Origin: Faecousia sp.
GTDB taxonomy: Bacteria > Bacillota > Clostridia > Oscillospirales > Oscillospiraceae
Assembly (NCBI GenBank): GCA_045580125.1
Contig: JAZNNE010000022.1
Location: 30-64,029, forward strand
DNA: 64,000 nt
Reading direction: 5' to 3'
The notes beneath the pieces were generated by a model. The model was not told where the DNA came from. It saw only the letters and a program-made list of their open reading frames with translations, and made no database searches. Of this stretch, positions 39,863-42,196 are shown piece by piece. The translations under genes were made by a program, and so were the position numbers. Positions within the stretch are counted from its first letter, which is position 1. The number at the start of each line of letters is the position of its first letter.

Positions 39863-39905
39863 AAAACAGCTAGTCGAAAGGCAACGTTTCGACTAGCTGT
39901 TTTTT
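39863..39905. terminator. Bidirectional terminator
   Basis: AAAACAGCTAGTCGAAA-ggcaacg-TTTCGACTAGCTGTTTT. Confidence 0.88.
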
Positions 39906-39916
39906 ATTGCGATCGC

Positions 39917-41452
39917 TCAGGGCTCATTGACCACACCTGCAAACAAAGGCAGATTGTCCCGGCTGCTGACCACGAACAGGAAGGGTCTGTCCAGCACCAG
40001 GTCGACCTCGTCCACCTGCGGCGGCGGAGCCATACCGGCCAAGAACATAACCGTAAATGCCGCGCCCTTGCAGCCCTCCTCGTCAATGACTACCCGGGCG
40101 GCATGGTTGATCCCATCCACAAATATGGGCTCATCTTCGGTAAGCGCACTGAAATCAGATACGTTCAGATCAAAAATATCCGTTACACCCATTGCCTGCA
40201 TACCGGAAATCAGATCCTGCTGCTGGGTAACATCAAATTTAGGCAGGCTCAGGTTGATCAGCATTTCCCGCTTGTTCTCCCAGGCACCGGGGTTCAGCGT
40301 CATTTGCAGATACTCGCCGCTTGCCAAAATATCTTCTGCAGTGTAGCCTTCGTCCGGCAGGATCAGCCACATTCCATTGTCCCCCGTCAGCTCCAGCTTG
40401 ATGGCGGCAAAGTTCTCCGCCCAATAATACTCCTGACGCAGGCTCCTATTCATAAAGGGAACGTTTCTGTCCACATCGGCACTGTGAAACAGCGCGTTTT
40501 TCGTTTCATCCTTCCCGAATTTCTTGTCCCAGGAAGCGGTGAAATAAACCGAAGAAGCCAGGGCAAAGGCAGAATTTTTGTGCAGAGAAATGTTATTTGC
40601 CTGCTCTGTCAGCATTCCGCCGGTACTTTCATTGAGCCAGCTTCGCAGCTGCTGATTCATCTCTTCTGTGCCCAGATCGCCGCTGAAGGAGGACGCATAG
40701 TAGCGATCCGCCAAAAGCTGCGCCGTTTCCGTGTTGACGGTGTACCCTTCATCCAGCCACAGAGAATTGGCAAGCAGCGTGGAAGTTACACCGTCCTCGC
40801 AGTAATGGGCATTCCACAGGTTATCCGCCTGCTCCCGCAGCTGCTCAATGGTATCCAAGCCGAACAGATCCAGGATCTGCTGCCGGGAATTGCCCTCCGC
40901 AGTTTCCGCCAGCATCGCCATCGCCAGATACACATTCACCGGAGAACAGACCTGATTGCCATTCCCCTGCAGAAATTGCTGCATACTGGTTTGGAAAAAG
41001 TCCGTCAGGCTGTCTGCATAGCCGTCGGGCTGGATATACTGCCGCAAACGCTCTGCTTCCCAGGCGTTGCACGCATTGTAAAACTCCATAGAGCTGGTAT
41101 TGTACTCTTCCTTTGTGGGATATTGGGGCATCTGCGGGTACGCAGGCTCTGCCACCAAATTGGTCAGCGGCACGATCACCGGCTCCGGGGCCGGTGTTGT
41201 AGGCGGATTGGTTACCACCGGTCTTGTTGCCGTCGGCTCTGTGGCAGGGAGTGGCTCCAGAATGGGTGGGTCGGCAGGCAACACGCCCCTGCCCGCCAGC
41301 ACACCGATACCGATAGTCAGCGCCAATGCCGCCGCCACCGTCGCCCTCCAATAGGGACGGCGGGGTTTCTTTTTGTCTTTTTTTGCAATATGCTCTGCCA
41401 CCAGGTCTTGATCCAGGTGGCTTAATCCTTCATTCCACTGCTTTGAATTCAT
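39917..41452 (-). CDS. Anti-sigma-like N-terminus, TM helix, Pro/Thr linker and extracellular serpin domain
   Basis: SPVNVYLAMAMLAETAEGNSRQQI, ANSLW, LASSVYFTASW, LSLPKF, NHAARVVIDEEG, LDRPFLF; N-terminus MNSKQWNEGLSHLDQDLVAE then a TM helix. Confidence 0.88.
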   Translation of the reverse strand: MNSKQWNEGLSHLDQDLVAEHIAKKDKKKPRRPYWRATVAAALALTIGIGVLAGRGVLPADPPILEPLPATEPTATRPVVTNPPTTPAPEPVIVPLTNLVAEPAYPQMPQYPTKEEYNTSSMEFYNACNAWEAERLRQYIQPDGYADSLTDFFQTSMQQFLQGNGNQVCSPVNVYLAMAMLAETAEGNSRQQILDLFGLDTIEQLREQADNLWNAHYCEDGVTSTLLANSLWLDEGYTVNTETAQLLADRYYASSFSGDLGTEEMNQQLRSWLNESTGGMLTEQANNISLHKNSAFALASSVYFTASWDKKFGKDETKNALFHSADVDRNVPFMNRSLRQEYYWAENFAAIKLELTGDNGMWLILPDEGYTAEDILASGEYLQMTLNPGAWENKREMLINLSLPKFDVTQQQDLISGMQAMGVTDIFDLNVSDFSALTEDEPIFVDGINHAARVVIDEEGCKGAAFTVMFLAGMAPPPQVDEVDLVLDRPFLFVVSSRDNLPLFAGVVNEP

Positions 41453-42024
41453 AAGGAATATCCCTCACTTTCCAGTTTCTGTCGCAGGGCTTTTCTGACC
41501 GCCGCCAGCTCCTTGTTGACCATAGACCGGCTCAAATTCAGCTCTTTGGCGATGGTTTCGATGGGCTCTGCCATATAGTAGCGGCTGATAAAAACGTATC
41601 TCTTGCGGCTGGACAATTCCCGCAAAAAGTCGCTGATGACCCTGCCCAATTCTCTTGCCTCCGCTTTTGCGCTGACATCCTCCTGACCGGAGAGAAAATC
41701 CTCCAGCTCGGTTAAAGACACCGCCATTTCGCTGTGGCGGAGATTCTTGTGATAACGGTTCACGGCGATCCTGCGAATAATGGCGGTTAAAAATGCCTTC
41801 AGCACCGCAGGCTTTGTGGGAGGAATTGCGTTCCAGGTGGCAAGATAGGTGTCGTTTAGACATTCTTCGCAATCTTTTTCGCCACCGACAATGTTATGCG
41901 CCACCGTGTACAGATACTTTCTGTATTTGAAATCCGTTTCGTCGATGGCGCTCTCATCCCGCGACCAGTAAAGTGTAATGATCTTTTCGTCGTCAAGCGG
42001 CAGCTTAACCGTTTGCAGTGCCAT
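41449..42024 (-). CDS. ECF RNA polymerase sigma factor
   Basis: DDEKIITLYWSRDESAI, DCEECLNDTYLATWNAIPP (region 2), RYVFISRYY...IETIAKELNLS..V (region 4 HTH). Confidence 0.92.
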   Translation of the reverse strand: MALQTVKLPLDDEKIITLYWSRDESAIDETDFKYRKYLYTVAHNIVGGEKDCEECLNDTYLATWNAIPPTKPAVLKAFLTAIIRRIAVNRYHKNLRHSEMAVSLTELEDFLSGQEDVSAKAEARELGRVISDFLRELSSRKRYVFISRYYMAEPIETIAKELNLSRSMVNKELAAVRKALRQKLESEGYSL

Positions 42025-42196
42025 ATTTCTCCCCCTTTCGCCGCATTGAAAGGCCCTTCATAACTATAAGTCAAGAAAAACTATGAAAGTGTGTAATCCT
42101 TTGTTTATTTTCATTATAACACAAAGGCGCATCGATGACCAGCAAATACCAAAATTCCCGAAATGCATCAGCATTTCGGGAATTTAATGTATAGGA

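Follow-up and report, generated by a model that had tools for sequence, protein, structure and literature searches.

The closest described relatives of the locus analysed here are the SigmaV/RsiV systems of Bacillus subtilis, Enterococcus, and Clostridioides (ECF30), in which an ECF sigma factor shares its transcript with an anti-sigma factor of single-pass, N-in topology. The RsiV ectodomain is a receptor for a host defence protein, and site-1 followed by site-2 (RasP) proteolysis releases the sigma factor (PMC6066255, PMC8767453). Clostridia also have many paralogous pairs with swapped sensing ectodomains of the kind described for SigI/RsgI in Clostridium thermocellum (PMC3413522, PMC7826278), although SigI falls outside the canonical ECF sigma factors, and RsgI has an N-terminal domain of its own (Pfam RsgI_N) and ectodomains that bind carbohydrate. 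Proteolytic cascades on single-pass anti-sigma factors, initiated by the cell's own protease, also operate in the SigmaE/RseA/DegS-RseP and SigmaW/RsiW/PrsW-RasP systems.

Serpins are one-shot protease traps. Gut and oral bacterial serpins of the Siropin/miropin type inhibit elastase-like proteases and are already of interest in inflammatory bowel disease (PMC5127057, PMC13376542), so the regulation of such serpins matters. In Bifidobacterium breve, the SerRK two-component system controls a serpin operon and the serpin is induced in response to proteases. The B. longum serpin is membrane-anchored and stays cell-bound through its N terminus (PMC8012564 and references therein).

The window (the whole 64,000-nucleotide stretch of DNA that was analysed) encodes an ECF sigma factor followed by a membrane protein with a serpin ectodomain. 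In our main reading, which we hold at a probability of about one half, the pair is an ECF sigma/anti-sigma cassette in which the anti-sigma ectodomain is an inhibitory-type serpin, held by a stalk at the cell surface and working through the release cycle proposed below. RsiV binds lysozyme without a covalent bond, and signal peptidase cuts it; by contrast, the ectodomain here, a putative suicide inhibitor, would be consumed covalently, and the tail has no recognisable anti-sigma domain. Unlike the RseA and RsiW cascades, the proposed initiator is a foreign protease attacking a bait. SerRK senses through a separate histidine kinase, whereas in the window the predicted regulator of an ECF sigma factor carries the serpin as part of its own chain. 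Like the Siropins (Eubacterium siraeum), B. longum BL0108, miropin, and BMG-1, it is a serpin of a host-associated anaerobe with a small or Met P1, but those have been studied as soluble or secreted inhibitors, and a sigma link is not mentioned for them. Literature searches combining serpin with anti-sigma or ECF, and macroglobulin with anti-sigma, found no relevant paper. We regard the pairing as a variant of receptor-type ECF anti-sigma systems for which we found no published description.

Layout and distribution of the sigma-serpin pair

The pair and its boundaries lie as follows.
42152..42185, minus strand: intrinsic terminator of the upstream acyltransferase gene (15-pair stem, then a T run); upper boundary of the unit
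41449..42024, minus strand: ECF-type sigma-70 family gene (191 aa, sigma2 and sigma4 only; Pfam, TIGR02937)
39917..41452, minus strand: serpin-bearing partner gene (511-aa ORF)
39863..39903, minus strand: strong intrinsic terminator (17-pair stem, then a T run); lower boundary of the unit

The sigma factor matches Pfam Sigma70_r2 (2e-7) and Sigma70_r4_2 (1.4e-7) and scores 64.5 bits against TIGR02937 sigma70-ECF, for which the cut-off is 42.9. Its distant PDB matches are SigJ and SigL. With sigma2 and sigma4 only in about 190 aa, it has the architecture of ECF (group 4) sigma factors, and it alone has ECF size among the nine sigma-70 matches of the genome. A second ECF-size sigma paralogue was sought in this genome and none was found. 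Therefore, the comparison of partners was moved to related genomes.

On the minus strand, the sigma and partner ORFs overlap by four bases, ATGA (reading ...TCC TTA TGA, with the ATG one base upstream), and GAGGG precedes the partner ATG by about 10 nt. The two genes are translationally coupled. The earlier note had described this overlap, and no point of its sequence description needed correcting. The partner is thus placed like a single-pass ECF anti-sigma factor, directly downstream of its sigma factor and co-translated with it. The lower terminator begins 14 nt past the partner stop codon. Terminators at both ends set the pair off as a self-contained unit of two genes. In relatives at 60-70% identity only this pair is kept, with the same 4-nt overlap, and the flanking genes vary. 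The ATGA overlap is also found in most homologous and paralogous sigma-partner pairs.

The earlier note had proposed a survey of sigma-serpin synteny, and the pairing does recur. The 24 named genomes are of Faecousia and further Oscillospiraceae MAGs from goat, yak, and sheep gut; 20 of them have a sigma gene directly upstream of the serpin gene, and one more is a weak case. Among loci sampled across the family, this holds in 17/29, plus 4-5/20. The same serpin clade is also found as plain lipoproteins in many relatives, and a second, unrelated ECF sigma class with a different tail precedes serpins in four loci. The serpin tree has 13 changes of anchor type, at least 3-4 of them forced by well-supported branches. 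On this tree, anchor type thus switched at least 3-4 times, with independent recruitment to sigma classes. The tail also carries ectodomains of the alpha-2-macroglobulin family, which in distant lineages stand behind other ECF sigma factors. A second bait-and-trap inhibitor on the same module fits a protease-sensing theme.

These distributions bear on another possibility, which we consider rather unlikely. The genes might be a genuine sigma/anti-sigma pair with the serpin as cargo, so that some other envelope signal or growth conditions free the sigma factor and the fusion merely anchors and co-produces the inhibitor. The lipoprotein forms suggest that surface inhibition is the basic role of this serpin clade, the partners of this sigma family bear many unrelated ectodomains, and serpin output in B. 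longum tracks carbon source rather than proteases (PMC8012564). However, receptor-type anti-sigma factors such as RsiV use the ectodomain as a sensor (PMC6066255). Furthermore, serpin and alpha-2-macroglobulin, both cleavage-triggered, have been recruited repeatedly behind different sigma classes, which is hard to explain if the ectodomain is irrelevant to signalling.

The constant head of the partner

The N-terminal part of the partner consists of two elements.
41348..41452, minus strand: residues 1-35, cytoplasmic tail, with the motif (K)QWNEGLSHLDQDLVAEHIA and then the basic patch KKDKKKPRRPYW
41285..41347, minus strand: residues 36-56, predicted single TM helix; the sole hydrophobic window above 1.6, with invariant A40 and A41

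The hydrophobic segment lies at about residues 36-55, is directly preceded by KKDKKKPRRPYWR, and is modelled as an AF2 helix at 36-52. Seven Lys/Arg at positions 24-36, immediately before it, mark a protein with one TM helix and its N terminus inside, and about 25 residues of the cytoplasmic part are ordered. Among the sampled sigma paralogues, the same module (M..E.L...lG.IDd.lIeeA, basic patch, P.W, TM) heads all 29 genes that follow, and nearly all of these follow the sigma gene at -4. Ala-Ala at positions 40 and 41 is invariant in 41/41 module sequences, and L10, L13, D14, L17, and V18 of the tail are conserved. The ectodomains behind the module are serpin, DUF4179, alpha-2-macroglobulin, or unknown. 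By these alignments, tail and predicted TM helix form the constant head of every sampled partner in this sigma family. A search of 1.84e9 representatives matched the module to 13,444 protein clusters, always at residue 1.

Anti-sigma factors of the RsiV type have DUF4179 next to the membrane (PMC6066255). This domain was found in 3 of the 29 paralogous partners, a likeness to RsiV that the window protein does not share, having no DUF4179 by Pfam. Pfam and NCBIfam gave no match to partner residues 1-150, so no known anti-sigma domain (zf-HC2, RskA, RsgI_N) was detected. The module profile had only spurious matches in the PDB and none to a solved anti-sigma domain. A tail with no apparent similarity to Pfam families or solved anti-sigma domains counts against the cassette model.

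Divergence of the tail correlates with that of the sigma factor (r 0.75; partial r 0.68 given the serpin), a value matched in none of 2000 permutations. The partial r between the tail and its own serpin is 0.19. This co-variation might reflect the physical linkage of adjacent DNA rather than contact. Its constant head, its co-variation with sigma, and the DUF4179 domains of some of its paralogues make the partner look like a membrane regulator cognate to the sigma factor. The earlier note had called the N terminus one of anti-sigma type. The short tail and single TM helix that it described were found, but "anti-sigma type" was an interpretation rather than an observation.

At locus L025, the sigma and partner genes are in one frame with two TAG codons between them. 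We read TAG as Q and folded this sigma-linker-partner read-through by AlphaFold with 62 sigma rows. The sigma factor formed two helical domains (pLDDT 87-98), whereas the partner helix reached pLDDT 47-61 and the tail was not confidently docked on sigma. The low confidence of this modelled helix counts against the cassette model. Candidate natural sigma-partner fusions were also considered, but their long open frames proved to be upstream extensions.

The uncertain docking, the absence of homology to known anti-sigma domains, and the shortness of the cytoplasmic part would all suit a module that is a mere type-II membrane anchor or a positive co-factor, with the sigma factor driving whichever surface protein follows. 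We consider this improbable. A plain anchor needs neither a cytoplasmic motif conserved over thousands of clusters nor a strict start-stop overlap with sigma, as seen in all 29 cases, and its divergence would not be expected to follow that of sigma. Short class-II anti-sigma domains are also known, CnrY being an example.

The serpin ectodomain and its bait loop

The ectodomain is built from the following parts.
41141..41284, minus strand: Pro/Thr-rich stalk, residues 57-104 (44% Pro+Thr; predicted disordered)
41000..41140, minus strand: conserved pre-serpin segment YPxMxxYP...AW...QPxGYADSL, residues 105-151
39920..40999, minus strand: serpin domain, residues 152-511 (Pfam PF00079, 1.4e-62)
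40019..40081, minus strand: hinge and reactive-centre loop, residues 458-478, EEGCKGAAFTVMFLAGM followed by APPP; predicted P1 Met474

Homologues have stalks of 0 to more than 100 residues. The pre-serpin segment, with an AF2 helix at 122-137, is common to the sigma-coupled and lipoprotein forms. The Pfam Serpin match spans model positions 6-370 of 370, placing the domain in the serpin superfamily, and the best PDB matches are conserpin and alpha-1-antitrypsin (E 4e-33 to 1e-27). No gap is needed to align the loop, from the hinge EEGCKGAAFT (which begins at residue 458) onwards, with the alpha-1-antitrypsin loop carried by conserpin-AATRCL, and this alignment gives Met474 as predicted P1 and Ala475 as P1'. 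Pfam and the loop alignment agree with the full serpin, the hinge, and the predicted P1 Met of the earlier note, and the TM helix and Pro/Thr stalk that it had described were found as well. An AlphaFold model of the whole 511-aa partner (23 rows) was poor (pLDDT 54) and was left out of the fold search.

The loop has the canonical length and the variable P4-P1' of inhibitory serpins. Mean entropy is 0.76 bits in the hinge and 0.98 bits in the serpin domain upstream of it, compared with 2.1 bits over P7-P4' and 2.2-3.4 bits per position over P5-P1'. In this alignment, the predicted bait loop is the most variable stretch of the serpin domain. The hinge fits the inhibitory consensus at P17 Glu, P15 Gly, P12 Gly, P11 Ala, P10 Ala, and P8 Thr. 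It is atypical at P14, where the consensus has a small uncharged residue but 113 of 120 homologues have Cys, and at P9, which is Phe or Tyr instead of one of the small residues expected over P12-P9. The P14 Cys and P9 Phe, unusual in inhibitory serpins, count against the cassette model. Taken on its conserved hinge and hypervariable P5-P1', the serpin looks inhibitory.

Those two departures from the textbook hinge and the poor full-protein model could point to a non-inhibitory, ligand-binding or chaperone-like fold that senses something besides proteases, but this is very improbable given the retained P17 Glu, P15 Gly, P12-P10 Gly/Ala-Ala-Ala, and P8 Thr, a loop as long as that of alpha-1-antitrypsin, variability concentrated at P5-P1' (the signature of inhibitors tracking their targets), and the inhibition of elastase and proteinase 3, at a stoichiometry near 1, by the related Siropins of gut Clostridia (PMC5127057).

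The proposed release cycle and its promoters

In the cassette model, the 35-residue tail would keep the sigma factor at the membrane at rest, and the serpin would protect the cell surface against serine proteases. The ectodomain would then be consumed or removed by proteases, through a covalent serpin-protease complex at Met474, through the ensuing conformational change, or by clipping of the stalk. The residual stub might be cut inside the Ala-rich TM helix by an M50 site-2 protease, for which the genome has a gene (C12:12374-13372, 191 bits), as the RseA and RsiW cascades would lead one to expect. The freed sigma factor would transcribe its own operon from a conserved ECF-like promoter and so replace the spent single-use inhibitor. 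By restocking the serpin, the system would be sensor and response at once, a demand-coupled resupply of a suicide inhibitor.

We infer protease attack as the trigger, with the hypervariable bait loop and the parallel alpha-2-macroglobulin fusions in support. However, a cleaved serpin loop leaves almost the entire ectodomain attached, which counts against a loop cut exposing a site for site-1 cleavage. The earlier note had proposed a protease-sensing receptor in which such an attack triggers sigma release. That proposal is supported in part. The receptor part gains from a partner that looks like a cognate regulator, from an inhibitory-looking serpin, and from the alpha-2-macroglobulin parallel; sigma release might come from a cut in the bait loop, from any loss of the ectodomain, or from another signal. 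Host elastase or chymotrypsin, which it had named, is just one candidate attacker. P1 Met and P4 Leu would equally suit subtilisins, and a giant S8 subtilase is encoded in the same genome.

If the cassette model is right, the receptor is a single-use inhibitor and its consumption is the signal, a new input for bacterial signalling. Gut anaerobes could in this way match a stoichiometric inhibitor to the load of pancreatic, neutrophil, or rival bacterial enzymes, an answer to a question that the protease-inducible bifidobacterial serpin had raised. A very large unannotated family of sigma-coupled Clostridia membrane proteins would also gain a function, and the system might be engineered as a modular protease-responsive switch. 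A wider proposal is possible but doubtful. Cleavage-triggered suicide inhibitors (serpins and, in parallel, alpha-2-macroglobulins) may form a general class of sensors among the ectodomains of ECF anti-sigma factors. Each bait-taking protease would irreversibly use up one anti-sigma and set one sigma free, so that a cell could gauge hostile proteolysis stoichiometrically and remake the inhibitor on demand. The short tail, without a Pfam match and present in 13,444 clusters, may mark out a large anti-sigma class of Clostridia that has yet to be described.

Three elements lie between the upper terminator and the sigma gene.
42113..42141, minus strand: housekeeping-type promoter with an extended -10 (TGGTCA-17-TATAAT, TG in front; 10/12 consensus matches)
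42064..42096, minus strand: candidate ECF-type (autoregulated) promoter, TTACACAC (42096-42089), 13 nt (42088-42076), CTTGACTTATAG (42075-42064)
42047..42060, minus strand: small inverted repeat TGAAGGGCCTTTCA in the leader

The ECF-type candidate is almost invariant in relatives of about 70% identity; the intergenic DNA around it diverges. Most paralogous sigma genes have a related bipartite motif upstream (TGTaAgAT-N16-CGTgTATATAGGTGAA), to which the site in the window is a weak match. This site may act as an autoregulated ECF promoter. Neither search of the genome for further sites found a convincing one. A motif HMM of the paralogue promoters had no significant match, the operon's own site included, and a pattern from the three closest relatives found the operon itself alone, at chance background. 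Consequently, no regulon could be defined. The weak match to the paralogue consensus and the failure of the HMM at the operon's own promoter count against the cassette model.

The TTTGTGcTATAAT of the housekeeping-type promoter is kept in relatives L062 and L064, in which the inverted repeat is invariant. Similar GAAGGnCCTTTC hairpins lie 3' of the promoter motif at the paralogue loci L046, L047, L050, L056, and L058.

An ECF sigma gene and its serpin-tipped partner

The pair and the elements that flank it are as follows, with the parts of the partner listed from its N-terminus.

42185-42152: intrinsic terminator, upstream boundary of the pair
42141-42113: housekeeping-type promoter with an extended -10, upstream of sigma
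42096-42064: bipartite element TTACACAC-N13-CTTGACTTATAG, upstream of sigma
42047-42060 (window): small hairpin TGAAGGGCCTTTCA, just after the bipartite element
41449-42024, minus strand: sigma ORF, 191 aa, ECF-type
39917-41452, minus strand: partner ORF, 511 aa
Partner part 1: N-terminus of 35 residues, its C-terminal end being KKDKKKPRRPYW
Partner part 2: one hydrophobic segment, about residues 36-55
Partner part 3: 48-residue stretch, 44% Pro plus Thr
Partner part 4: conserved segment of about 45 residues
Partner part 5: complete serpin domain (Pfam 1.4e-62, model positions 6-370 of 370)
39903-39863: intrinsic terminator, downstream boundary of the pair

The end of the sigma ORF and the start of the partner ORF share four bases, ATGA, just as the earlier note had read them. 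The layout that it gave for the partner (short N-terminus, one transmembrane [TM] helix, Pro/Thr stalk, and full serpin) was right in every checkable detail. The 191-aa ORF matches Sigma70_r2 and Sigma70_r4_2 in Pfam and scores 64.5 bits with TIGR02937, against a cut-off of 42.9; its sole solved relatives, SigJ and SigL, are both distant. For the serpin domain, the top PDB matches are conserpin and alpha-1-antitrypsin. The 4-nt overlap is preserved in relatives that are 60 to 70% identical, where the neighbouring genes are not the same. The window's genome (1.54 Mb, 94% complete) encodes one serpin, and no second ECF-size sigma was found in it.

Comparison of relatives revealed that both upstream blocks are preserved where the proteins are only ~70% identical and the surrounding DNA has diverged. 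Most sigma paralogues in related genomes have a similar bipartite motif, TGTaAgAT-N16-CGTgTATATAGGTGAA, upstream. We read the bipartite motif as a putative autoregulated ECF promoter. Hairpins like TGAAGGGCCTTTCA, and variants of it, lie directly after the ECF-like motif in the upstream regions of five sampled loci (L046, L047, L050, L056, and L058). The hairpin, shared by the leaders of many paralogous sigma operons, might stabilise the 5' end or serve as a regulatory site.

The N-terminal tail as a candidate anti-sigma module

We put at about three in four the probability that the two genes form a sigma/anti-sigma cassette whose ectodomain is a serpin. The family to which the window's sigma belongs is highly paralogous, with members in 95 of 151 genomes and as many as eight copies in a genome. 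At each of the 29 paralogue loci sampled, the gene that follows begins at the sigma stop, mostly at -4, and opens with M..E.L...lG.IDd.lIeeA, a basic patch, P.W, and a TM helix with AAC, in which Ala-Ala is invariant. Behind these 29 paralogues, the ectodomain is a serpin in five cases, includes DUF4179 in three, and is an alpha-2-macroglobulin in one; the others have no Pfam match. DUF4179 is the RsiV juxtamembrane switch and is said to be restricted to Firmicutes anti-sigma factors (PMC6066255, PMC7826278).

In a search of 1.84 billion representatives, a profile built from the tail and TM helix (A4) matched 13,444 clusters, and 1,020 of these matched at E<=1e-10. The match lay at the extreme N-terminus in 150 of the 150 matches listed, and the ectodomains are nearly all unannotated. 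Profile searches of Pfam and the PDB found no similarity of the tail to any Pfam family or solved anti-sigma domain. The tail and TM module is a very large family without a Pfam model.

Among 34 sigma-serpin pairs, the tail diverges in step with the sigma (r, 0.75; partial r given the serpin, 0.68; 0 of 2,000 permutations as high) and not with its own serpin (partial r, 0.19). Three sampled loci (L074 to L076) have serpins 64 to 68% identical to the window's, but their sigmas are only 39 to 43% and their tails 27 to 32% identical. Linkage of adjacent DNA could explain the co-variation of tail and sigma. Bearing on the cassette reading, there is also a locus (L025:1102-1131) where the usual ATGA overlap is absent and the sigma and serpin partner share a frame, the spacer being TAG, four codons, TAG, and four codons. 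This was read through as TAG=Q and folded on an alignment of 62 sigma sequences. The sigma domains had pLDDT values of 87 to 98 and the partner helix 47 to 61, in a fold with no alignment for the partner, a short tether, and no contact output.

Recurrence of the pairing and exchange of anchors

Of the 151 genomes sampled from the same family, 74 encode serpins. The survey of sigma-serpin synteny that the earlier note had proposed found the pairing to recur. Among the 29 best serpin loci of the family, a window-like sigma lies directly upstream in 13 and a different ECF sigma in 4; the remaining 12 have no sigma, and there the serpin begins with a lipoprotein signal peptide. Twenty additional loci yielded 4 or 5 more sigma-coupled serpins and about 19 lipoproteins. 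In named genomes (Faecousia sp. and other Oscillospiraceae MAGs from goat, yak, and sheep gut), 20 of the 24 loci, and one weak case besides, have the sigma directly upstream. All of the 120 closest database homologues have an N-terminus of the same kind.

A second ECF sigma class, unrelated to the window's, precedes serpins at L007, L028, L029, and L030, and the partner tail differs (M.RYK.AN..L.PS.EL.ERA). Tandem pairs of lipoprotein serpins are frequent (L101, L110, L112, and L114), and one 1273-aa open frame in another genome (G131:C4:315447-317732) holds two serpin domains.

In a maximum-likelihood tree of 81 serpin domains, lipoprotein forms are intermixed with both kinds of sigma-coupled form. 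The best tree requires the anchor type to change 13 times, at least 3 to 4 of these changes being forced by well-supported branches. The window's clade has 25 members, all of them sigma-coupled, and 22 form a core whose SH-aLRT is 99. Two members of the window's closest 12-member clade have a different sigma and tail subtype, which looks like a cassette swap. This repeated exchange between lipid and sigma-coupled anchors indicates that surface inhibition is the serpin's primary role, and it argues that its wiring to a sigma was selected more than once.

The bait loop and surface proteolysis as a candidate signal

Hinge plus loop, EEGCKGAAFTVMFLAGM|APPP, can be aligned gap-free with the loop of alpha-1-antitrypsin, giving P15 Gly, P14 Cys, P12-P10 Gly-Ala-Ala, P8 Thr, P1 Met474, and P1' Ala. 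The earlier note had predicted the same P1 Met. P17-P8 of the hinge is strongly conserved (mean, 0.76 bits); P14 Cys and P9 Phe/Tyr are atypical of the consensus for inhibitory serpins, which leaves the serpin a putative inhibitor. P5-P1' is the most variable stretch of the serpin domain (2.2 to 3.4 bits per position, versus a mean of 0.98 upstream of the hinge), equalled only in the pre-serpin segment around residues 114-125. P1 itself, Met in the window, is mostly Ala, Gly, or Thr in homologues. At the sequence level, a conserved hinge with a variable P5-P1' is the pattern shown by inhibitors that track target proteases. Related gut serpins inhibit neutrophil elastase and proteinase 3 (PMC5127057, PMC13376542). 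With Met at P1 and Leu at P4, candidate targets are elastase, chymotrypsin, and subtilisin. The window's genome has genes for one HtrA-like protease and for one giant S8 subtilase, a possible self target of the serpin. The S8 domain (G000:C47:7854-9248, in the window's genome) is the only one there and forms part of a 2455-aa open frame that probably encodes a giant protease of the cell surface.

We propose that the tail would hold sigma at the membrane while the stalk-borne serpin inhibits serine proteases at the surface. Protease attack would use up or strip off the ectodomain, and an M50 site-2 protease, for which the genome has a gene, would cut the remaining stub within the Ala-rich TM helix. 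Its Ala-Ala is reminiscent of the alanine-rich ends left on RseA and RsiW by site-2 cleavage. Freed sigma would then transcribe its own operon and so replace the spent inhibitor. It is plausible, with the odds evenly balanced, that proteolysis at the surface provides the signal and that renewed supply of the serpin is the response. It is doubtful that bait-loop cleavage specifically is the trigger. The serpin body would stay attached after such a cut; stalk clipping might expose site 1, and so might the load that a covalently tethered protease imposes.

The closest system is sigmaV/RsiV, whose anti-sigma ectodomain is a lysozyme receptor, and the closest functional precedent is the Bifidobacterium breve serpin, which is protease-inducible under two-component control (PMC8012564). 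In the literature searched, neither a serpin nor an alpha-2-macroglobulin is described as the ectodomain of an anti-sigma factor, and the searched reviews of bacterial and gut serpins did not mention sigma factors or membrane fusions. What we rate as new is the class of sensor domain on a receptor-type ECF anti-sigma factor, the receptor type itself being known.

In one related genome, a sigma paralogue is followed, with an ATGA overlap, by a 1657-aa protein and then a Memo-like gene. The 1657-aa protein has the same tail as the window's partner and an alpha-2-macroglobulin-family ectodomain; its homologues contain bait-region, MG2, bMG3, and A2M domains. Seven clusters of alpha-2-macroglobulin homologues have this tail, and far more distant homologues with other N-termini lie directly between an ECF sigma and Memo. 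Alpha-2-macroglobulins and serpins are both inhibitors that change shape once a protease cuts their bait. Of the indirect arguments for ectodomain proteolysis as the signal, the strongest is that sigma-coupled membrane tails bear both kinds in several lineages.

The Oscillospiraceae alpha-2-macroglobulin shares its N-terminal tail with the window's serpin. The three-gene module (ECF sigma, ~1650-1770-aa alpha-2-macroglobulin-family membrane protein, and Memo-like protein) was seen at L095:111-6792 (G075:C20), L096, L097, and L098. It recurs in very distant lineages, the start of the membrane protein gene overlapping or abutting the sigma stop.
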